64,000 nucleotides of DNA from Puniceicoccales bacterium (lineage in GTDB: Bacteria; Verrucomicrobiota; Verrucomicrobiia; Opitutales; JAIRLM01). The notes under the pieces are model-generated. The model had not been told where the DNA came from. It made no database searches and worked only from the letters and a program-made list of their open reading frames with translations. The position numbers and the translations under genes were made by a program. Where the stretch lies: positions 1,919 through 65,918 of the forward strand of contig JAIRXK010000014.1 in assembly GCA_031268315.1 (NCBI GenBank), written 5' to 3'. The first letter of the stretch is position 1, and each line of letters opens with the position of its first letter. Positions 9,024 to 48,105 of the stretch are shown piece by piece.

Positions 9024-12000
9024 CTACTGCGCCACTCCGAGTTGGGAGGATTTTTGGCTCCATCGGACATAGAATATGCCCGTAAGCATGAGAAAGATGG
9101 CACCCGGTGCAAATATGAGCGTCTTTGCTGTGGCTACGCCAACCAATGCTGCAATGGTTGGCAAAATTCCAGTTCCAAATGCTCCAAAGAGTAGGAGTAA
9201 AGCCACTAGGACGGCTATCATAGTAGCGATGCTGAAGCCGATGAATAAGTACTTATCCTGCTTTACTTTTTCCATCAAAGCTGTCGAGCTCTTGTCGAAA
9301 TTCTTCTGACACTGGTTCGTTCCGCTTAAGAGCTGATTTGAGTCCGGGTTGTCCGCGATCTGGGTCTTGGTCGTGTCCGAGGTCTTATTGGGCAGGTCGT
9401 TCTCGTTCGATTTTTGACTTTGGCTCTCCTCATTTACGGGTGGGTTCGTATTCTGATTACTCTGGATCGTGTTGTTCTCGTCTGAGTTGATCTGCTTGAC
9501 CTGATCATTCAAGTTGCTCTTTTTCTCGGGCATGTTGATCGAATTTTCCCGGCTCTTACTCTCTTCGTTTGTGGGCAGGTTTTCACCTTTTTGACATTGG
9601 ATTTCCTCGCTCATGGGTGCGTTCGAGTACTCGCTTTTGGCTGAGTTTTTTCCGCTTGAGTTTGGATTCATTTGTTGAATATTCGTATTCATCTGCATCT
9701 GCATTGCTTTGGTATTCAATTGATTTGTGTCCTCATTGTTTTCGATTGGGCTTATGCTTTCGTTTGAGTTGATCTGCTTGTTCTGATCACTTAAGTTACT
9801 CCTATTTTCGCTTGAGCTGCTCTTAACCGCGATCGAAATCTTGGGTGTGCTCTTTTTTTTCAGATCCTGGTTCGGGCTCTGATTTACGAACATGTTGCTT
9901 GTGTTCTCGTTCTCGGTTAATTTGATTTGCTCGATTTCGGATTGGATTAAGTTTTCATTTGGGTCTTTACTGTCGCTCTCTAGTGCACTCCGATTTTCCT
10001 GACTTTTGCTCTGATCATCCACGTTTGCACTCACGTTTGTGCTCTTATTTTTACTCGAGTTGATCAGATTCTTCTGACGCGGCTCATTTTCGGGAATATT
10101 TTCGCTCAGTTCAATCATGAGTTCAGGTGTGCTTTTTTTGTTCGATGACTTGCTTTGGCGCGGGTAGTCAATCTTGGTCTGGCGTGAGGTCTGAGTGAGC
10201 GGGGTGCTTGCGATTGAAGTTGAGTCCGAGTTGGCCTTGATCGGGTTTTTGTTTGAATTTTCGCTATCGCTCTTTAGCGTACTTCGATTCTCCTGACTTT
10301 TGTTCGTGGTCTCATTGTCGCTCTTGTTTGAATTTTCTCCGGCCGCGATCGAATTCACTTGTTGAATGCTAATGTGTTCCTGTGCGGATTTGTCATCCAA
10401 CTGATTTGTGTTTTCAGGTAGGTTCTTTTGGTTCTGATCCTCGGTCGTGGTCGTAGATCTTCGCCCTTGGCTGAGTTGTCCTAAATTGATCTCTCTCTTG
10501 CATATGGGCCGATTGAAGTTCGAGTCGACCATGATCTGGGTCTCGCTGTTGACCGTGGTTTTAACTTCGATTGTGGCCTCAACTGTATCTTGATTTATGG
10601 GTCGGCTTGAGTCCAAGTTGCGGTGATTGATCGGGTTTTTACTCACGGGTATGGTCTGATTTTTGTTTTCTTGCGAATTTGTGCTTTGGAGTTCAATCGG
10701 AATTTGGATCGCCTCATCCGTGGTCCTTCTCAGGCTCGCGGACTGAATTATTTTCGTGCAGATTCTTTTGATTTCATTATTTTCTACATTCGGTAGTATA
10801 TTTTCGCTGTTTTTTTCGCAGAAGCATTTGCAAATTTCTGTAAGTAATTCACTTTCATTGGGAATGATTTTCATCAGGAGATTAGAATGTTGCGGAAGAA
10901 AAAGATTCGCAACCTCTGCATGGCCTAAAATTCCAAACTGCGCAATTATCATATCATTATTGCAATTAATGTTTTCCGCTTGTTTCTCTATAAGTGCGTC
11001 TAAGAAATTTCTGGAAAATTCCATGGAAACAATTTTATTGAAATCATTTTTCTTTTCCGAATAAATCTTTTCTAGGAATTGCATACTTTTGATGGGTGTT
11101 TTTATGCATTTTTCAAGCACAATTTTCAGCTTTTCCGGATCTTCTTCATTAATTAATTGGTCATTGCTCATATTAAGAAGATCGCTATTCATAAATTTAT
11201 AACCCTCCGCTTCAAATGGATTGAACCAATCGGAAAAAAATATGGCTTTTCTTAAGTTTTCATTTTCTTTAATCAGTGCACTAGCAATATTTGGAGTATC
11301 ATCACATAGAATTTTTATTTTATCCGGTGCATTTGGTATTCTGGCAGCACCTTCCTTTATAAACTTGCGCAAATTTGTTTCTCGCAATCGTGAAACCATT
11401 ATCTTGTCAATGGTATTTAGCATTAAATGGAATTCGGCATCTTTGAGACTGCAGTAATTAATGTTATTTAAAACATAATTAAATAAAGTGCGAACGAAAG
11501 CATTTTTTATTCTTTTACTTTTTGCATTAGTTATCCATTCGATTATTTCTTTTGCATCAGTTTTATTAATAGTTATTTTACTCAGCAAGGAAAATTTAAA
11601 CGTGTCCTCTTCAGTAAAGTAATTGCTTTCTTCGGCTTTGTTTTGGTTTAGTAAAATCATAGCTATGAGTTGCTGATCATTTGATTGAATTGCGTCATTG
11701 AGCGTGAAACGACTTAAAATAGTGTTAACAAATTTTTGGTCGTGGAACATTAATTTAATTAATGCTTTTGCAGTGTTTATGTCAGTAATTTTTTGAAATT
11801 GAGTGGTCTCAGTGACTTTAGAAATAAATAAACTATAGAGCGATTTATGTTTTGAGAATTGTAATGAATTTAGTGTGCATATAGTTTGAATCGCATTTTT
11901 AATGCCATCATCTCCGCAATTTGCTATAAAATTTTCAATGCTTGTTTCGAAAATAGAATTATCGAGCATTCTATTTGACATAGATTCGGGGAATAATTCC

Positions 12001-15000
12001 GAAGAATTCTTGATTAAAAGAAGAATTTCCAAAATATATGCATGTTTCTTTTGGGCAATGTAGGAAAAAATATTATTGGAATTATTTCCATTTTGCATTT
12101 CGTAGATTTCCTTTGATTTTTTGAAAATCTCACTGCGAGCTGACAGCTCATTAGATTCAATTACTGCAAAAGCCTTTTCTTTTTGGTCATCTGTTAATTT
12201 CCCGAAAAACACTATAGCAAAATCGATAAAATTACTACTTTCAACATCAATACTTCCACTTATGTCCACTAATTTCTTATCACACAGTTGATTTATCGCG
12301 ACTATGGCGTTAGTATCTTGCAGGAGATTTTCCGAAAACTTAATACAGGAAAAAATAAAGGTACTGAGAGGGTAGTTGCGAGGATATGCAGGGCTTGTGT
12401 CATGAATTTTCTGAAGCACTAAACTTGCATTGATGGGAGGAAATTTATTTTCTATAGTAATATCGATGCATACATCATATGCATCGATGGGGCGATTAGT
12501 CAAAAATTGCTTTTTAAATTCATTTGTAAGACCTCCTTTGTTTGCGCACGCGAGGCATAGTAATGCCGTATCTATGTCTATTTTTGCAAGATCGGCGCAT
12601 TCACTAATTTCTTTCCCGATATTGCATATTTTATCCCATATTTTTTTCTCATTTGGGGAATTTGCAGGTTTGGTATGTTTAGAACGCCTTGCGCCTATTG
12701 CTGATATAATTTTTACTGGGTTTTTTTGAGTAATATACGTAGAAATTGTTGTGCGAAAAAATTGATATGAATTATTTCCTGGGATAGCTCTTTTTATGGC
12801 GTCTAAAAAATCTTTTTCGCTCATCTCTTCCATCTTTGATCCAAAATACTCAACAAAGTTTTTTCTGTCAACTTGGTTCGATGGGTTTGAGTTAAAAAAC
12901 TTTCCGATGAAAAATTCAAATAATTCATTGCTTTTTTTATTTCTATATATTTCGAAAACACTTCGTATGATTGTATCGTCCCAATTTTTCCCTGCGCAAA
13001 ATTTTTCAATGAATTCGACGCATTGCTTTGAATTATTTTCAATATTTGCGTCTACAATCTTCCTTAATATCGGATCATTTATGTGAGGAAAAATGATTTC
13101 AGAAGTGAATGGATTTCGTATAAATTTTTTACTTGCCATTTCGCTTAAAATATTAAATTGAGGATTACTCAGTAATGCAGAAATGATTGCTTTTCCATTT
13201 TCCGCACTTAAAGCGTAATTAAATAAATAAAGAAATAGCGCATTGTATTCATCGTAGATTAATTTTAATTGTGAGAATTTACTACTTTCTAAATCCTTAT
13301 AAATTGCTTCAATTGAACTGAATATTTTTTTGCTTATTTCTAATTTTTTACTACTTTCTGGCACCCTATCGTTCATACGAAGAAATGCATTGATTTTTTT
13401 GTAATATGAAGGATCAGCGGAGTTACTAAAGAATTTATTTATTTCCTTTTTGGTGCATATTGCCTTATATAATGTTGTTGCATACTCATTGGGAAATTGG
13501 TCGCTTCCCACATAGAAAAGAAGAATTTCATCCAAATCGCTTTTGTTCCCAAATATTTCATTGCTGGCCCAGTCGCATATGGGCATTTGTTCGAAGTTTA
13601 TATTTTGGAAATGAGTTTTGAATTTAGAAAGGCAAATTTTGCATTGATTTTTGGAAAAATCACAAACTTGAGCAAGTGGCAATGGATTAGTTGGATCCGC
13701 ATGGACACACGCGGCGAACAGCGCAGCCATGTGTGGATTACGTACGCTTTTTACTCTTTTAGTGTCATTTTTTAAAATAAAAAGACACATTTTTTGCAAA
13801 ATTTCCAGTGATGCATTGTCGCTACGCAAAAATAAAGTTAATATGTCATTGTCATTAAGGGTGTCTAGAATGTTTTTTAAAAATTTTTCTTTGCATGAAT
13901 TGCATTGATTATTAATTTTACTTATCAACATATTTCGCTTTTTACTATTTTTAAGTATTGTATTTCCGTACATTAATATTGCCTTGAGAATGTTCCCAGT
14001 AATTAAACTTTCGCCGTTATTATTTAGAACTAGTTCGAAGAAAGTATCTATCTTCATTTCAATGTTGCCCATATCTCCATACGCTGCAAGCAATATGCTG
14101 CTTTTTGCTTCTTCGTCATGAATAATGTTTGCATTTTTGATTTCTTCCAAGCATTTCGTACAATTTCCACTGCGAAGCATAAGGAAGTGGTGAATTGCTT
14201 CTTTGTATTTTTTAAAATTAATTTTTTCATGAAGTATTTCGTAGCTTTTTTTCTCATTTTTTTGTAAAATTTCTATTTCCGCATTAAAAAAATGCGACAT
14301 CCATTTGACGTTGTCGAGAAATTCTATTATTTCATCATTTAATTCGGCTTTAACATGTGCATTTGCATAGGTTGTTGCCAAATAGCAATTGGTTAATCTC
14401 TTATTTTCAATGAGATTTTTTATTTCGCTTAAGTCATTTTTAGCGACAAATATGCATCTAATATCACTGGCATCTTCATTCCAAATAATAAGCGCGTCAT
14501 CTGCGCAGATTTGTGATCCGTGAAAAACGGACAACTCAACATTTGCTGCCCGTAAAAAGTTGTTTGAATAGGAAAAAGATTTAAAAAAAGAATTTCCAAA
14601 AAGTTTTCTAAATTCCCCAAAACACGGATCAGTTTTTTCAAATTGTTTGAAATGCGCTTCAAGATCTTTTGGACTATTTTCTCCTCCATGAGACCAATGA
14701 TTTTCATAATATTTATAGGCATTCAATGGGATAGAATTATCTTTTTCAGAATTTTCAAATAAAAGGGTTGGATTACGCAGATTTTTGCTGTCAATTTGAG
14801 TGCCAATTTGCGCAAGAGTTTCTTGATTGATGAGTTGCGCTACATTTATTTCTTGTTCTTGCATTTGTTCCATATTAACCTCCGTCTGCTCTTCGGCGTT
14901 CTCTTCCACTTCTTGCATTTTTTCCTGCATTGCGCCGGTATGTCCAAAATCACCATATCTATTGCATTCCAATGGTGCTAAAAATTCTTCACCCTTGGGT

Positions 15001-18000
15001 ATGCGCTTTATATTTTTCTTTGCCCGCATTTCTACATAGGTAATGTCGCTTAACATTTTCTTAAATTGTTCGGAAGATAAATTGCTTTCCAAATCTTTTA
15101 TTATTTCCGCCATCTTCGCTAGTTTTGTATCAAATTCATTTTTTATTGCATCATTGGTGGATTTTCGGCATTGTAAATATCTCCAGCCATCAAGTTCGAA
15201 TAATTTTTTCTCTATGAGAAATTCCGAAAAGGATTTTCTGAGTAGACTTTGGTTTTTGCCTTCATTCGTTGCGATATCATCATTTAACCACTTTTTTATG
15301 GCTTCCACTATTAGTCCGTGAAGTTGAATTTGAATGGCTTGTGCGCGTTGTTTAATTGTGTCTTTCGTGGTGTTATTCACAAAATGTTTGAGAAGATTAA
15401 TTGATAATTTTTTCTGACGAATTCCACTGTAGAAATTAGAGCTAGTACTTTCGTTTTCAATCATTGGGTCTATTTCCCTTAGTGCATCTTTACAAACAAT
15501 TAAGTCCATCTTCTGTCCTGGGTCATCGAGAAATTTTCGTTCACGCATGATGCTCTGCGTAAATGCGCTCATTTCCATGTTGTGCAAATTTGCAGTCATT
15601 AGTCCATGTCCGTTGCTCTTCATGGCGGGGTCGGATCCGACGCTGTGTCCCGCGTCGAGAAACGTGAAAATCTTATCGACGTCTTTGGGGCGCTGATACT
15701 TCGCGTCGTTCAAAACTGTTATCGGGAAATCTCCATTTTCGTGAATATTTTCGACTTCTGCAATGGCAAATGCTCTGACCCGGGGATCGTACCATTCAAT
15801 GTGGGTAACATCAAGCTCCGATGAACGTATAAATTCAGCGATGTCGCGGATAATATCGCGGGTTTCTTGGGATATGAGGAAGCACCCGCTGTCGACGATG
15901 ATGCGAAGATTTTTAATCACAGCTTCAGCGTCGTTTGGATTTGCCCTTTGAACATTCATTTTCCATTGTCGAAGTAAATTTTCGGCAGTTAAAACGGAAA
16001 TGCCCTTCGGAGTTTTAGTTTCTTCAGTGTCCATGGTTTCCGGAGATATGGCATGGATGTGGGAATGCTTATTTTCATTGTTTTCCACAAATTTTGAACA
16101 TACAGCTCCAAGAGAACCTGTTTGCGGACTGTAATGTTCTTCCATGCACAAAGGAAATGCACTTCGATTATATGTGGTTCCAGTTGCTCCAATGGCCGAG
16201 TGAAATACATTTTCTATAACTGTGGAAGGTGATGTGCTGTAGGAGGATGTATTCCAAACGGCAGCAGATGTGCAGACTTTTTGCGACAGTGTAGTCGTGA
16301 CATTTCTTCCGTCTGGAGTAGATGCATATCGTCGAATTGCATTTAAAATTTTATCTGAAATACAATATTTATGTTCTTTATTCATTTCAACTGCGTCATT
16401 TAGATGCAGCAGCTCTCCTTCGTGTGTCAATTTTTTGAAGTATATTTCAAACATTTTAAAAGAATTTGTTTCGTGGAATTTAATTTCAGCAGAAATTTCG
16501 TTATTCATCCCGTTATGGAGTTGCATAACAAAGTTGTAAATGGTTTTTTGGGAAAAACCTCCGGACAGAATGCTTAGGCATGAAAAGCAGATAATTTCCC
16601 ATGGATTTTGAAACTTACTCTTCGACGGTTGAAAATTCGCATAGGGTATCACTTCACCCGTTACGGAATCATAGCCAAAGTCCTTAGTGTAAACCTTTGA
16701 GAAGCAGTGTGGAATGAGGTTGGTGGCCATTGCCCGCAGGGCAAGAATGGACTTCAATTTATCGCCGTCCTCGAACTGCTTCATAATTTTGTTAATTTTT
16801 TGCTGCGTATCTATACTTTCGGGATTCGTTTCGGATTGCCCATCCAACTCGCCGACCATAAACTTAAGAAATAAGCTTTTCTCGTCATTGTCGGAAAAAC
16901 CCACATCCATCGAAGTTAATTTTTTTTCAACTGCTACCTTTAATTGATTGCGCAATTCCAACTTAGCAATCAAGCTTTGCTGGTTGTTTTTACAGGCGGT
17001 TAATAATTTATCAGGCAGGCAGTTAAATATAAAATCAGTGACTGCTTTGATTTCATTATCACCAATTTGCATTGTATCTTTTTTTCCATTTGGCGCTGCT
17101 TCAATGATGAATGCCTCCTTCGGATTAGCCGTGAGGTGAATTTCATCGAATATGCTGGTACATTTATTTAAAATTCCCATTACCTTGGCGTATTCAATGA
17201 GATATTCATTTGTGTTTTTATTGAGCTCCGGATCGATTGAATTGAAAATTGCAAGCAATGCCATGAGTTCGTTGGAAGTAAATACGGGTATTCGGGTTCG
17301 TTCTTTTACTATATCATTCAGTTTTTCATAGAGAGATCGCATTCCATTCACCGACTTTAAACTTTTGAAATCTAGGTGAATTGCCTCAATGACGATTCCT
17401 AATTCGCTAAAAATTGCGGGCAGCTCTTTGAGTACGGAGGGAAGTTGAGTCGAATGCGACACAATGACCGGATAGCCAAAGTAACAGCTATCCTCATTGC
17501 TGCCATCATCATATTTGCTGCGCTTTTTCTTTAGACAGAGCCCCATGAGCACCAGCGCGGGAATGAGGGCCTTCGACTTTCCGCTCCCCATGAGTTGCTG
17601 AATCAGTGCGCCAACTGCAACCTTATTTTCACCGTCGCCCTCCCCTTGGAGGGTCTCGAGAGTAAAATATATTTTTTCGATTTGATCAGGGCGCAGGCGA
17701 ATTTGCGACATCATCTCCAAAATGAGTGAAAATTGATAGATTAATTTATTGCGCTTTCCAACGTCGTCTGCCTTGAACTCATCGCTAGAGTCATCACGGA
17801 GTGAGCGAATAAGCGCAACGACCGTTCCCCATGTGAAATTATTTCTATCTTTTGAAAATGCATAAAGCGCATCATTTATCTTCTGAATATGGCGTATGGA
17901 GTTTATGCCGGAAATATAGTCTTCAATGGCCTCATTGAGAATACTAAGCTTTTTAACGTCAAAGGCAGGATTGCGATCGCGAATGTACTTAAGAGCCCTT

Positions 18001-21000
18001 TTTTTATGCCCTCCCGCGTAGTATCCAAATATGCGGTGAATGTCCTCGGGAATGTTTACCGAGCTCCACTTGCCGGAGCCGAAGGTTGTTTCAAATTTAC
18101 CAGCGCATAGCAAATCGCCAATTTTTTTTACAAGTTCAGAGGTTGCTGCGCGCAGATCGGTTGTTTTATTTTTTAATGAATTTGAAAAATTTCCTAAAGC
18201 GGTTTCTGCTATGTTTTTAAAGAAATTTTCATTTAAAAATGGATCATTTTGTCTTTTAGTCTGTTCGCACCCACTCGCATCCATTTCGCTTTGAAAGGCT
18301 TCTAGATCGCTTTGAAATTCAGTGCTCGCATTGAAAGCTTCATCGGAATTGTTTTTCCCGAGTATGTCATAGCGTTGCGCGGAAGAACTATTCTCCTGCG
18401 GTGAATCAGAAATGTCCATAACTTTATTGGGATCATTTACTTCTATCTTGAAAATCTCTCTTGCATTTTTTGCTATTTCTCTCTCTGCTAATTTGCATAT
18501 TTTTCTTTTCGTTGCCTCTTCCTCGTTTATTTCCGCTGAAGCATCGTTGAATGGAATGCCGTTCATCGCTTGTATGTTTTCGGATTCGCGCAAGGAGATC
18601 GCCCGCACTTTTTCGGATTCACGCAAGAAGAAATATAATTCATCTTTTTTTTGATGCACTTCTTTATTTTTGTAGTAGCTGCTTATATTTTCACTCAATG
18701 TAAGTTTTTCTTTGTGCACTTTTTCTAGCACTTCTAGATGCAAATTTATCTTTTTGATTTGGTCGAGATCGAGATGAAATTTTAATTGTCTCCACAGAGA
18801 TATTTCTTTTTCAAATGACATTTCTGTAAGTATTGAATAATGATCATAGCCAGAAAGATAGGTCGCAATTAACTCGGGGAAAAACTTAATACTTCCAAGT
18901 AATTTTCTCACCCCCATCGAACTCGCATCCCACTGCAGCATACGTCCAATGGCTCTAAAAATAAAATTGGCGGATTTGGGTGATCTTTCTTCTCCGTCAA
19001 TAAACCATAGTATCATATCCCGAAAGACGGCTATTTCATCCTTGCCAATCGCTCCATTTGTCGACAGTAGCTGCAGGTATTTTATTGCATTTTCATATTC
19101 TCCCTGTATTTGAAATGCTTGCGCAATGCGAAGCGTTCCGAGTGGTGTGTTCCCGGTCATGGGTTTTTCGCAGAAAATGACTGGATCACAGCTAAAGGAT
19201 ACTTCGCCCAGGCATTCACTTTTCCAAAAAATTTCGCCATCTAATTTGGGACTAGCAAAGGCAAAATTATATTGATGCATGAATTGATCTTTTCGTCGAT
19301 AGGTGCCTCTTGGGATAAGAAATTTATAGCTTTTCATGGAATTGGAATCAGTATTTTCAAGGCATAGATAATTAGTAAAATTAATAAGCGGATTATGTAG
19401 ACAATTATTAGATTCCATAGGAATGCCATAACCGTCCAATAGTGGTGTCGCTATGCCAAGGCATAGTTTATAATTTTTATTACCATTCCATCTCCACGAA
19501 TAAGTTTCATCAGGTTCTTTGAGTGGCGTCAAAAAGATCTCATTGCCGTTCGAGTCTTTTAACCTAGGGAAAAAAATACGTACTATTTTCCCGTCGTTAT
19601 CATAGAGAGCTCCAATGCATTCTTTATCTTCGAAGAGGGATAGGCACGTATTTTCGAAAGGCTGTATGGTTGATGTCGATGATAAAGGTCCTGAAAATGC
19701 AACAAAGTACCCGTTGTCCTGTTCGCGATAACTTTTTAATACATATGTGCTTTCTCCGTTAATTTTTGTTTCAATTGTTTCAAAAAGAAGCCTCCCTAAA
19801 GGATTATTTTCGTAGATTCTAATGAATCCATTTTTTGCTATAAAAATATTAAAGTCACTGCAAATAAAATACGATGGTATGAATTTTAAATTTTCAAAAT
19901 TACTATCTTTCGTGTCCATCTTACCTAAAAAGAGCCATTGATTTTGATCGCCATCCAAATCGCATAAAATACTGACATAATTCCCGTGTTCATTTCTTCT
20001 TACTTCGATGGCGCCGAAAGTCTCATCTTTAAAAAAAGAAAAATCTCCATTGCGAACTATTTCAAACTGTTTATCTCCAAATAAGCGCTTGCAATCATCG
20101 TCATCAGAAATGCAAGATTGGCATGCGGTTAAAATTTTGCCATTTACATGAATTGATAGCGTTAGGAGGTCAATGAAAATATTGTCGCTTTGAAATATGG
20201 CATTATTGTTCGATTCGCCATATTGCGTCAGTTCGGAAACCGCAATGTTGAGATGTTTGCACAATTCACCGGCAATTTTTTTTGCGGCATTTGGGTGATT
20301 CATCCAATAGCGATCGAGTATTTCGCAGGCATCGTTTGCCGCATAGAGACAACCTTTAGGTAGACCGCGTGCATTAAATTGTTTTAGCATGTAGCTATTG
20401 AAAATAATTCTTTTAATATATTTAACATTAATGGGTTTTTGCCATGCTTCCAACCTATTTTCACCAGTTTCTTCTACGGAATTCAATTCAAGCATATTTA
20501 AAATGCATTCATTTTCCATGATAGCAATGTAGTACTTAGCATCACTATTGGCATTTTCTCCGTTCATTATATATTTTTCAAGGTTTATAATTTTTTCCAT
20601 ATGATTCGTTAAAATCTCTAGAAGCATCTTGTAGGTATTTTCATCGGTTTTGTGTTGAGTGATGATATTGCGTAAAACTAGAGATTTATAGTGCATTACC
20701 ATTGCCAATGATGAGGCACTAATTTGATTGAAGGGCACGCGGGTACAAAATTTTTCTATACCATCATGCTCCAGCGCATTAACTGCATCAATTAATTCAT
20801 TGAAATTGCTTTTCGCATTTTTTTCGATTGGCCTAGGATCTTTCAGATTGTGCTGAATAGTATTTCCTATTTTTCCTATGGAAAAATCCTGCATCGTTTG
20901 CTCGAAGAAATGCATCAAGTAATAGTTTGATTTTTGCATTGACTCAGAATCATCGTTGGGGCTATTCGCATTAGTATTTTTCAAATTGCCAAAGGCATTA

Positions 21001-36298: not shown

Positions 36299-36820
36299 TT
36301 AAAATCTTTTCGAGTTCTGCGCAAGCATTTGCAAAATCTTGCAAAGCCACATTTTTTTTAATGTATGAGATTGGCACATGCCTGGATTTTTTTCTTCATA
36401 CGTTTGTGTGTACTTCATAATTTCATCACTGAAATTATTTGTATTCCATAATATTATATCATGATTTGCGGAAAGAGGCGCATACTTTTTTTTTCTTCTC
36501 TTTCGAAACATTGTAATAGCAGAATGTATCAAAAGCGATCCCAAAATGGCCGAGAGGATTATAAGCAAAACGGGTTGCGCACATACCGCTATCATTCCAA
36601 ATATTATATCCGCAATACAAAATACACTAACACTTATTAGGGCAATTCCAATGCAAGCCGTTGTTACTCTATGTCGCATACTAAGTGGCTTAGATTCAGT
36701 GTTCCCGGTAGGGCCGTCAATCTGTAACAAGTGCGGATATGATGAACCACCAACCCTACCTGAGTGTAGGACAAAATTTTCAAAAAGCAATGGGGAAATT
36801 TTTTTAGATCGACCGATCAA
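36299..36820 (-). CDS. ORF fragment / small membrane protein with bilobed hydrophobic domain (Inc-like), immediately downstream of sctU
   Basis: VTTACIGIALISVSVFCIADIIFGMIAVCAQPVLLIILSAILGSLLIHSAITMF forms two hydrophobic lobes. It starts 11 nt after the sctU stop. Confidence 0.5.
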   Translation of the reverse strand: MIGRSKKISPLLFENFVLHSGRVGGSSYPHLLQIDGPTGNTESKPLSMRHRVTTACIGIALISVSVFCIADIIFGMIAVCAQPVLLIILSAILGSLLIHSAITMFRKRRKKKYAPLSANHDIILWNTNNFSDEIMKYTQTYEEKNPGMCQSHTLKKMWLCKILQMLAQNSKRF

Positions 36821-46194: not shown

Positions 46195-48105
46195 ATGACA
46201 ACTTTTTCACAATCGCCAAACATTCCCGGGGAAAATACCGAGGGAATGGAAATAGGAACTTCTGCCAACGGTGGCGATGAATCTCCCATATTCATCGACG
46301 ATATCGCAGCACGGCAGAGGGAGCGCAGCGCAGCGCGCATGCGGCGCGAACAGACGGAATCGGAAAGGGCCACCACTGAGATGCCCGCGCGGGGCCGAAA
46401 GTCTCGCGGGCGGCAGTCGGGGGGAGCGCACGGAAGGAATAGTGATTCCGCCGAAATGGGTGGAGATCCACTTTTATTGGACGGAGAAAAGGAATGCTTA
46501 ACGCGAAATTCCGATGATCCATCTGGCTCCTTTGCTTCCCGCGGTGCCAAGGAGGAGGGAATGGCCGGCACTAATTCAAGGCAGCGAAATTTTTCCCGAT
46601 CTCCGCAGCAAAATTCCGCCCAGCGGCATTCAGCTGCGGCCAATTCTCGCAGTTCTTCCCAGTGGCCGGCATCTTCGCGGCGGGAATCCGGCGCCGCAGC
46701 ACCGCAGAGTTGTCCGCAAATTGCAGCCGCAAGGCGAAAGCTTCCCTTTGATTCGCTGAGGGAGTGGGATCGCATTCGCTCAGTGCAGTCCATAGAAACG
46801 TTGGGCATGGAATTTTTTTCCGATGAAATACCGATCAATTTCAATGAGATCTATGGCCTTAGCAATGCTCAATTGCATGAGCTAGCCGCATCTTTGAGTG
46901 GAGAAGAGGAGGGGGTGCGTACCGGCCAGCGCAAGCGGGTCTTGCACGGTTGCTTTTCGCGGGCACAGGCCAATTGTACTCCCATAGAAGTAAGGGGTCT
47001 GTTGGCCATGCTTTCCGATGGCAATGGCTACCTTACCTATGGCGTAGATAACTATCAGGCCAGTGATTTCAGTGTTTTTGTGCCGCGATGCCTCATCCGA
47101 GCCAATGCCCTCCGCCGCGGTCAACAATTGCAAGTGCATGCAGTCTACGTAAATCACATTCCCCATGTGATTGCCCTATGTGCCGTGAAAATTGTAAGCG
47201 TGATGGGAAAACCGCCACAGGATGCGGCACTGCTTCCGCAATTTCATGACCTTATTCCCTACTATCCAACGGAGCGCATTCTTCTGGAGTCGGCGACGGC
47301 CGATGCGAATCAAAATCTGTCCATGCGAATTATAGATCTCCTTTCGCCCATCGGCTTGGGCCAACGCGGGCTCATCGTTGCGCCGCCGCGCACGGGAAAA
47401 ACCATACTACTTCAAGCCATTGCCAATGCCATTGCCACAAATCGTCCGGATGTGCATCTCATGGTGCTGCTCATCGACGAGCGGCCCGAGGAGGTGACAG
47501 ATTTTCGGCGCATGTCTCGGGGCGAGGTGTTTGCATCCACATTTGATGAATACGCTGACAGCCATCTGCAGGTGGCGGAGATGGTCATAGAAAACGCACG
47601 GAGACGCGTGGAATGTGGCGAACACGTGGTGATCCTTCTGGATTCCATCACCCGGCTTGCCCGGGCCTATAATGCGGTCATGCCGAGCAGCGGTCGGGTG
47701 TTAACCGGAGGCATCGACGCCAATGCTATGCAGGGACCAAAGAGTTTCTTTGGCTCCGCCCGAAACATTGAGGGTGCTGGCAGCTTAACCATCCTCGGAA
47801 CGGCACTCATTGAAACGGGAAGCCGCATGGACGATGTGATCTTTGAAGAATTCAAAGGAACGGGAAATATGGAGCTGTACCTGGATCGGGATCAGGTTGA
47901 AAAGCGTATCTTTCCGGCCATCAATCCCTGCAAAAGTGGGGTGCGCAAGGAGGAGCTGCTCTACCATCCGGATGAATTGGGACGAATTTACGCATTACGC
48001 CGAGTCATCGATGGTGTTTCCTACAGTGAAACCATGGCCATGTTCATCGAACGGTTGAGGCAGACGAAAAATAACGTGGAATTTCTCATGTCCGTTGGCA
48101 TTTAG
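46195..48105 (+). CDS. rho: transcription termination factor Rho with about 220-aa R/S/G/E-rich N-terminal extension
   Basis: Walker A is [41 protein letters not shown] and the C-terminal [17 protein letters not shown] are present. The N-terminal third is low complexity. Confidence 0.95.

Follow-up and report, generated by a model that had tools for sequence, protein, structure and literature searches.

A giant Puniceicoccales gene encodes a putative membrane-anchored variant of the DUF3638 proteins with a conserved N-terminal His/Cys domain

We analysed a 64,000-nucleotide stretch (hereafter the window) of contig JAIRXK010000014.1, positions 1,919 to 65,918, from the metagenome-assembled genome (MAG) of an uncultured Puniceicoccales bacterium (GenBank assembly GCA_031268315.1). 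An open reading frame (ORF) of 4941 codons on its minus strand, 9024..23849, is a genuine gene in intact form, and its product is a giant multidomain protein. As judged from sequence comparison, this protein is a divergent, expanded, membrane-anchored bacterial variant of the DUF3638 giants, and the gene belongs to a branch of the DUF3638 superfamily in bacteria of the Planctomycetes-Verrucomicrobia-Chlamydiae (PVC) group, specifically Puniceicoccales and Chlamydiota. Its ATPase core is a two-lobed superfamily 2 (SF2) motor that keeps all of its nucleotide-binding motifs; its N-terminal domain is likely, from residue conservation, to be a Cys-dependent catalytic domain (a candidate hydrolase or transferase); and its C-terminal extension of ~1,600 amino acids (aa) finishes with a polar linker followed by a hydrophobic anchor of 63 aa. 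The features that we regard as new are a co-varying His/Asn/Gln/Cys domain common to bacteria and giant viruses, the apparently SecA-like plan of the motor, the anchor, and a paralogue expansion with ongoing decay. We give about an even chance to the proposal that the product is a membrane-tethered enzyme-motor protein acting at the host interface, probably exported by an injectisome.

The ORF runs uninterrupted from a GTG start. The NCBI gene begins at the ATG at 23837, four codons later, and its 4937-aa product is recorded as 'MAG: hypothetical protein LBI69_01765 [Puniceicoccales bacterium]' (P0001 here); residue numbers below follow the ORF unless marked P0001, the ORF number being the P0001 number plus 4. 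The chance of 4941 stop-free codons, computed from the base composition of this strand, is ~1e-158. An earlier model-generated reading of the DNA, made from the letters alone (the sequence-only reading), had described one intact ORF with several motif strings, and our translation placed all of them where it had put them: SGHQTFAYVKK holds His256 (23082-23084); AAQKSGNCVMRS holds Cys370 (22740-22742), with Gln365 (22755-22757) five residues before it; the Walker A string MGSGKS is encoded by 17574-17591; and DEIH is encoded by 17136-17147, 147 aa past the start of LMGSGKS.

A word-indexed search with the whole protein found two paralogues only, and a later profile search recovered further ones in the same MAG, LBI69, in which at least seven copies are intact, with lengths of 3,605-5,221 aa (locus tags 00295, 00775, 01765, 02565, 02635, 04390 and 04665). 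A word-indexed search with an alignment of the N-terminal domain gave zero matches, probably reflecting a limit of the word index. One paralogue is 44% identical over 81% of the length, the other 54% identical over 51%. Along the protein, identity to the two closest paralogues was 35-78% per 100-aa segment over most of aa 200-3300, with lower values in a few segments and before aa 200; it collapsed at aa 3300-4860 and recovered in the C-terminal anchor. These comparisons bear on whether the ORF might be an assembly chimera of paralogues, or a pseudogene left open by chance, as could be imagined for a MAG with at least seven paralogues and a true pseudogene copy next door. The similarity to the paralogues is colinear and full-length over the whole conserved core, which argues against a chimera, and the catalytic-type motifs are all intact. 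Moreover, at the 44-54% protein identity of the paralogues, which is a protein-level comparison, long near-identical DNA stretches are not expected. Considering also the open-frame chance given above, and the neighbouring degraded copy, which shows what decay looks like at this locus, we hold an artefact of this kind to be exceedingly improbable.

The ATPase module occupies ORF aa 2044-2904 (15138..17720, minus strand) as two RecA-like lobes, delimited by conservation, the structural model, Foldseek and hhalign. We searched a profile of this region, built from the three closest paralogues, against 1.84e9 representative proteins, and obtained 70 matches at E<=1e-3, of which 31 had E<=1e-30; among the 70, all those whose source name was looked up come from Puniceicoccales or Chlamydiales/Chlamydiae. 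The profile matches DUF3638-positive proteins at 1e-55 to 1e-4, and several relatives bear the NCBI name 'DUF3638 domain-containing protein'. The DUF3638 model PF12340 matches 14 of 15 distant family members (best E 1e-25, counted at E<=0.01) and 18 of 24 ATPase fragments of relatives (best E 3.6e-23, counted at E<=1), and these matches are not necessarily over the gathering score. Ten of the fragments match ResIII; ResIII, DEAD and DUF3645 matches were weaker in the relatives, with DUF3645 found in one relative only. A search from a distant member, P0064, reached Estrella lausannensis, a Simkaniaceae MAG and four fungal proteins. All four fungal relatives carry DUF6606, DUF3638 and DUF3645, and UniRef gives the name 'ubiquitinyl hydrolase 1' to three of them and to the Estrella protein. 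Over the whole module, the fungal proteins reach 143-208 bits with the family hidden Markov model (HMM). Reciprocally, an HMM of the P0064 homologues, a set of chlamydial, fungal and unnamed proteins that includes no LBI69 paralogue, scores P0001 92.8 bits over P0001 aa 2040-2878; this match was seen with the HMMER option --max, the default speed filters having hidden it. A direct comparison with hhalign of the six closest paralogues (P0001-P0006) with the P0064 homologues gave a probability of 100% and E 9.6e-41 over 689 columns. The sequence-only reading had likened the core to the DUF3638 P-loop module, and this transitive and direct profile-profile evidence shows that the likeness was correct, though the protein falls outside the Pfam family by its formal score. 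In the literature searched we found no functional study of the DUF3638 giants, which are thus a catalogued kind that is functionally blank there.

The motif content of the module is that of an SF2 motor. Walker A (LMGSGKS) and Walker B (FDEIH) are present, and all 47 non-redundant members keep their G, K, D and E unchanged; the SF2 motif positions as a whole are conserved in 41-47 of the 47. In P0001 numbering, the conserved set comprises R2049/Q2052, Q2080, M2083-G-x-G-K2087 and D2231-E2232, followed in its second part by G2553-T2554-x-x-N2557, D2649/G2651, D2728/G2734/D2736 and Q2761/R2765/R2767. Motifs Q, I, II, III, V and VI of SF2 are represented in this set. A motif III-like GTTYN (16167-16181) and a motif VI-like QSIMRER (15537-15557), both on the minus strand, were recognised from conservation over the same 47 members. 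An AlphaFold model of the ATPase (870 aa, 24-sequence alignment) was obtained with a predicted local distance difference test score (pLDDT) of 85.4 and a predicted template modelling score (pTM) of 0.83, and shows two alpha/beta lobes. According to its secondary structure, an insertion of ~310 aa lies between Walker B and motif III (16203..17135, minus strand), and a 54-residue helix (model H770-823; 15264..15425, minus strand) directly follows the second RecA-like lobe. The insertion holds a family-wide motif, FGYD..G.VIPYAN..PS.S.FQNPWE, with conserved G2388, P2398 and P2404 (P0001 numbering). This motif sits roughly where the fungal relatives have DUF3645 and may be its equivalent; PF12359 (DUF3645), a 33-position HMM that lies ~115 aa after DUF3638, found no match in P0001.

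When the ATPase model was compared with the Protein Data Bank (PDB) using Foldseek, the matches were SF2 proteins and SecA only. SecA came first, with seven entries at E 1.4e-5 to 9.4e-4 (3jv2_A, 1.4e-5), followed by INO80, a chain of the RNA polymerase II pre-initiation complex, ISW1 and CSB. In SecA, it is the preprotein cross-linking domain that is inserted after Walker B, at this site, and the second lobe is followed by a long scaffold helix. The topology read from the secondary structure of our model suggests a similar plan, with a DEAD-like motor, a large insertion that separates Walker B from motif III and a long helix after lobe 2, and the motif III strings are similar, G(M/A)TGT, this being the sole aligned part of the sequence comparison. 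It differs in that the insertion is twice as long here and largely helical. SecY-binding or C-terminal zinc features were not seen, although no search aimed at them was made. We take the SecA-like plan suggested by the model as a pointer to mechanism. SF2 motifs would also be displayed by a helicase or translocase that acts on nucleic acids, forms part of a mobile element or defence system and is not directed at a host, and such an origin would fit the weak ResIII and DEAD matches of the relatives, a weak sequence match of the ATPase to XPD (E 0.0045), the Snf2-type and other SF2 folds among the structural matches, and the transposase fragment nearby. However, the best fold match is SecA and not a helicase, no PADLOC model matches, no nuclease or methylase partner gene was found among the ORFs neighbouring the giant gene, and the transposase fragment is located within the decaying copy, without a tie to the intact gene. 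We consider this origin very unlikely.

The N-terminal alpha/beta domain (ORF aa 205-469, ~265 aa; 22443..23237, minus strand) was delimited by an iterated local HMM, seeded with P0001 aa 191-470, and by a structural model. The HMM detected the domain in 42 family proteins; it is also present in 24 of 32 further P0064 homologues, Estrella lausannensis included, and is absent from the fungal proteins. In 33 non-redundant copies, the only positions conserved at >=80% are three Gly together with His256, Asn275 (23025-23027, minus strand), Gln365 and Cys370. The His and the Cys tend to be lost together: both are present in 27 copies, neither in four, only the His is missing in two, and in none is only the Cys missing. 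The chance that all four Cys losses would fall within the six His losses is 15/40920, ~4e-4, by a hand calculation uncorrected for phylogeny. As a separate observation, six members (P0005, P0008, P0013, P0036, P0060 and P0063) have partly or wholly lost the His/Asn/Gln/Cys set and kept the ATPase motifs; in P0005, a paralogue from the same MAG, the His is replaced by Asn and the Gln by Gly. Such members are possible pseudo-enzyme copies.

The AlphaFold (AF2) model of this domain, from 30 sequences, has a pLDDT of 82.4 and a pTM of 0.80. In model numbering, Cys181 starts a 24-residue helix (181-204), His67 is the second residue of strand 66-76, and Asn86 comes after strand 79-85; all three residues lie in blocks with pLDDT >=91. 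At the level of secondary structure, the predicted local geometry of the conserved residues resembles that of papain-like enzymes: a Gln lies five residues before the Cys at the N-terminus of a helix, the His is on a strand, and the Asn follows 19 residues later, after the next strand. The pattern GH..(A/Y)Y...K....W...(E)xN also resembles the His box of USP enzymes, and the string around the Cys a Gln/Cys box. The order of the boxes is, however, the reverse of that in USP (Cys box, then His box) and OTU (Asp-Cys...His) enzymes: His256 lies 114 residues before Cys370, and no conserved His is found downstream of the Cys within the domain. This order excludes a standard USP or OTU. A His that precedes the Cys is characteristic of the permuted NlpC/P60-LRAT enzymes, among which acyltransferases and lipases are frequent.

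Peptidase or deubiquitinase activity is a plausible assignment for the domain, one possibility among several. The sequence-only reading had pointed to peptidase-like motifs and had warned that the call was motif-level only, with the His block before the Cys block. Its warning was justified; the residues that it singled out proved to be the best conserved of the N-terminal domain and to be lost together, and the families that it had likened them to were not recovered, as no OTU (PF02338), UCH/USP, PPPDE or other peptidase profile matched P0001 or 30 homologues of the domain, nor did DUF6606 (PF20255, 267 positions). Similarly, of the two folds that it had proposed to look for, the SF2/P-loop fold was found for the ATPase, and a papain-like fold was not found by Foldseek for the N-terminal model. 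The domain could instead carry out acyl transfer, deamidation or transglutamination, bind a metal or a nucleotide, or be structural, 'ubiquitinyl hydrolase 1' being an automatic annotation only. The missing peptidase profiles and PDB neighbours and the NlpC/P60-LRAT-like order of the residues fit such a role, as does the fact that the fungal proteins named 'ubiquitinyl hydrolase 1' have, in place of this domain, DUF6606, which shows no counterpart of these residues. On the other hand, a Gln-x4-Cys at the start of a helix, together with a beta-hairpin that bears the His and, 19 residues on, the Asn, resembles a papain-like arrangement, and the co-loss of His and Cys fits a catalytic pair, although this supports catalysis generally and not peptidase activity specifically. 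We regard a non-peptidase role as a serious alternative, with somewhat less than an even chance. The idea that the DUF3638 giants might be the 'VTD' herpes-tegument-like deubiquitinases was dropped, as PMC9741609 makes no mention of such proteins.

The part of the protein after the ATPase starts with a conserved region (ORF aa 2905-3304; 13938..15137, minus strand), 38-73% identical to the paralogues, which the ATPase-region profile covers in many relatives. It is followed by a divergent extension of ~1,080 aa (ORF aa 3305-4384; 10698..13937, minus strand), poorly conserved even among paralogues, whose Asn/Ile/Lys-rich composition over about aa 3300-4380 is as the sequence-only reading had given it. 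Next comes a polar low-complexity linker of 480 aa (P0001 aa 4381-4860; 9258..10697, minus strand), with 40-60% S/N/Q/T. The ~470 aa of S/N/Q repeats announced earlier correspond to this polar stretch; the term 'repeats' was generous, as we found only a faint, degenerate periodicity of ~95 aa (~282-294 nt in the DNA), BLAST detected no internal protein repeats at E<=0.01 in the C-terminal 1,700 aa, and Tandem Repeats Finder gave nothing relevant. The protein ends in a three-lobed hydrophobic anchor of 63 aa (P0001 aa 4863-4925; 9063..9251, 189 nt, minus strand), seen in the hydrophobicity profile and the translation and close to the 60 aa announced. The sequence of the anchor is conserved among the paralogues and in the degraded copy. 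A terminal hydrophobic block of 50-70 aa ends many Puniceicoccales members, and a shorter one is found in a few others, including the Chlamydiales 38-26 protein. No hydrophobic N-terminal signal peptide is present in the sequence.

The window also encodes an export apparatus. The injectisome genes sctU (36832-37947; NCBIfam SctU, 412 bits, cut-off 358), sctT (37954-38742; SctT, 200 bits, cut-off 163) and sctS (within 38765-39235; SctS, 97 bits, cut-off 76.5) lie on the minus strand, and for these genes the flagellar models stay below their own NCBIfam cut-offs. The type III secretion system (T3SS) that had been attributed to this genome is, by these scores, a true non-flagellar one. An injectisome in a MAG of Puniceicoccales (Verrucomicrobiota) parallels that of Chlamydiae. 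Three ORFs flank sctSTU (36299-36820, minus strand; 39129-40043, plus strand; 40565-41269, minus strand), which match no family and hold a hydrophobic block of ~50-55 aa each; they are candidates for further Inc-like proteins or T3SS-associated membrane proteins. A 669-aa ORF (25413-27422, plus strand) without a Pfam or NCBIfam match has a bilobed hydrophobic block of 55 aa (aa 19-73) followed by a hydrophilic body, which appears from its sequence to be the classic layout of an Inc protein. No T3SS chaperone gene was found among the ORFs neighbouring the giant gene.

Directly downstream of the giant gene lies a degraded, frameshifted tandem paralogue (485..8613, minus strand), which tblastn recovered as seven colinear segments in all three frames of the strand, with 38-53% identity. 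This copy keeps recognisable N-terminal His/Cys strings and the C-terminal anchor, and has no equivalents of P0001 aa 1866-2641 and 3147-4770, the first of which corresponds to the first ATPase lobe, with Walker A and B, and most of the insertion. A DDE transposase fragment (2646..2945, and also 3027-3317, minus strand; PF13612, 1.9e-11; PF01609, 6.9e-8) sits in this ATPase gap, and the insertion of an insertion sequence, or a deletion, probably destroyed the ATPase of the degraded copy. Directly upstream of the giant gene are tRNA-Pro(GGG) (24101-24177) and the bacterial small signal recognition particle (SRP) RNA (24188-24286), with tRNA-Ser(GCT) (25093-25185) further upstream, all on the minus strand. 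A listed ORF, 24100-24552 on the plus strand, overlaps tRNA-Pro and the SRP RNA and is probably spurious. The GC content is 0.32-0.40 in the first 27 kb (1-27 kb) and 0.35-0.53, mostly >=0.40, in the rest of the window. The low GC content and the flanking tRNAs suggest an island at a tRNA locus.

The remaining part of the giant protein is a conserved middle region (ORF aa 470-2043; 17721..22442, minus strand) with no assigned function. It is 35-65% identical to the paralogues, best conserved around aa 1400-1700 and partly detectable in other MAGs, and contains a weak TPR-like string (Pfam TPR_1 at aa 1574-1593, E 0.9). Elsewhere in the window, 46195-48105 (plus strand) encodes a 636-aa Rho-like terminator factor in which the RNA-binding and ATPase domains of Rho start at ~aa 267, leaving a long N-terminal extension, and 73-381 (plus strand) encodes a C-terminal alpha/beta hydrolase fragment (Abhydrolase_3, profile positions 148-209), cut by the window edge or a gene remnant.

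In the mechanism that we propose, the C-terminal tail would tether the protein to a membrane, with the ~4,860 residues before the anchor on the cytosolic side. The ATPase would grip a polymer substrate, either a polypeptide or a nucleic acid, and move or remodel it, and the Cys/His head would cleave or transfer a (iso)peptide, ester or thioester bond. Most likely, the protein would serve a bacterium that lives inside cells or with protists and would be directed at the host: the injectisome would export it, and it would insert, in the manner of Inc proteins, into a host-derived membrane. A host-directed setting is suggested because amoeba-associated chlamydiae, giant viruses and fungi also have members of the family, because the MAG holds at least seven diverging paralogues and a decaying copy, because the gene lies in a low-GC region flanked by tRNAs, and because neighbouring genes have Inc-like hydrophobic blocks. 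The union of a conserved Cys/His enzyme-like head, a SecA-shaped ATP motor and a C-terminal anchor makes the protein a good, though putative, candidate for a giant host-directed effector. A more specific version would make its head a new circularly permuted papain-like isopeptidase or deubiquitinase, mechanically coupled to a SecA-like polypeptide motor; the T3SS would inject the protein and its tail would fix it in the membrane of the host vacuole, while amoeba-associated chlamydiae and giant viruses would have the same enzyme-motor pair and fungi only the motor. We consider this full version distinctly unlikely.

Several results weigh against the proposal of a host-interface enzyme-motor protein. 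P0001 matched no sequence profile of Pfam, NCBIfam, PADLOC or the PDB, and the three-paralogue profile gave nothing useful against the same collections; for PF12340 (gathering score 31 bits), neither the whole protein nor its ATPase fragment gave a match even at E<=1. The structural matches to SecA have template modelling (TM) scores of 0.31-0.44 (6itc_A, 0.40/0.44) and are fold-level only; hhalign of the ATPase against E. coli SecA gave a probability of 0.2%, and no SecA Pfam model matched P0001. Foldseek found no PDB neighbour of the N-terminal model (best E 0.14), nor any papain-like structure, whether standard or of the circularly permuted PPPDE/DeSI and NlpC/P60-LRAT types. Compared with the DUF6606 of the fungal proteins, the N-terminal domain gave an hhalign probability of 1.7%, and nothing in fungal DUF6606 corresponds, in the alignment, to the His or to the Q-x-x-G-x-C motif. 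Anchoring does not belong to the core properties of the family, because a chlamydial clade of ~3,100 aa ends soon after the conserved post-ATPase region, without a hydrophobic tail. Finally, T3SS export of a 550-kDa protein is putative, and the inner membrane of the bacterium itself could just as well be the one to which the tail anchor attaches the protein.

This last possibility is the main rival. A non-secreted protein with the same anatomy would be tail-anchored in its own inner membrane, face the bacterial cytoplasm and act on a bacterial substrate, in envelope or protein quality control or in the handling of DNA or RNA at the membrane. In favour of this, the protein has no signal peptide and just one hydrophobic segment, located at its very C-terminal end; SecA, whose fold comes nearest, is a membrane-associated bacterial motor; 4,937 aa would be very large for a T3SS substrate; and the adjacent chaperone gene is missing. 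In contrast, the family is common to fungi, giant viruses and amoeba-associated chlamydiae, with name-checked profile matches that are all from Puniceicoccales or Chlamydiales/Chlamydiae, and seven diverging paralogues with a decaying copy fit host-interaction genes better than housekeeping genes. The chlamydial clade, moreover, works without an anchor, and the lobed block of 50-70 aa is like that of Inc proteins and of the neighbouring small ORFs. From this balance, retention in the inner membrane seems to us somewhat unlikely, and we keep the host-interface proposal as the preferred one.

Few conserved proteins of fungi, giant viruses and chlamydiae are larger than the DUF3638 proteins, which carry the database name 'ubiquitinyl hydrolase 1'. 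The compact, confidently folded N-terminal domain offers a testable handle on this family, and the SecA-like plan raises the possibility of a protein-handling motor over a nucleic-acid one. Here a bacterial lineage combines at least seven copies, an added membrane anchor and an injectisome. If the effector proposal is true, the PVC bacteria that use giant effectors of an Inc-like, eukaryote-type kind would include, besides Chlamydiae, symbionts of the Puniceicoccales.

Among known systems, LifA/Efa1 and the chlamydial cytotoxins, giant T3SS or T3SS-associated toxins, are comparable in their very large size and embedded Cys-enzyme motif. Inc proteins have a bilobed hydrophobic domain of ~40-60 aa, which is N-proximal. 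The likeness to them lies in the hydrophobic block, which has two or three lobes and 50-70 aa, in the injectisome that the genome encodes and in the Inc-like blocks of neighbouring small ORFs; the giant protein differs in that its block is at the extreme C-terminus and not near the N-terminus, and it has no sequence similarity to either the Inc or the LifA families. The only structural neighbours of the N-terminal domain are the predicted N-terminal parts of Klosneuvirinae entries named 'DUF3638 domain-containing protein' or 'ubiquitinyl hydrolase 1' (E 3.5e-6 to 5e-4). For Harvfovirus A0A3G5A476 ('ubiquitinyl hydrolase 1') and Hokovirus A0A1V0SFG7, Foldseek gave a probability of 1.0 for the predicted N-terminal fold; these proteins are viral, share 12-19% sequence identity and have no known anchor; the likeness is one of predicted fold.

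The closest comparison is with the chlamydial and fungal DUF3638 giants, such as those of Estrella lausannensis (P0100, 3158 aa) and Chlamydiales bacterium 38-26 (P0043) and, among fungi, of Mycena, Triangularia, Aspergillus and Apiospora (P0114-P0119), some of them 'ubiquitinyl hydrolase 1' in UniRef. The protein described here stays below the Pfam thresholds, exists in at least seven copies in its MAG, and is ~1,800 aa longer than the members of the chlamydial 3,100-aa clade through the addition of the divergent helical region, the polar linker and the anchor. The fungal proteins are likewise without these three additions and have DUF6606 at their N-terminus. With the chlamydial members it has in common the N-terminal His/Cys domain, with GGW..P.GHAIYY and QRSG.C, and with both groups the whole two-lobed ATPase module, which is homologous and in the same place, ~aa 2040-2900, and matches in its Walker A 'MG.GK' and Walker B 'DE'.

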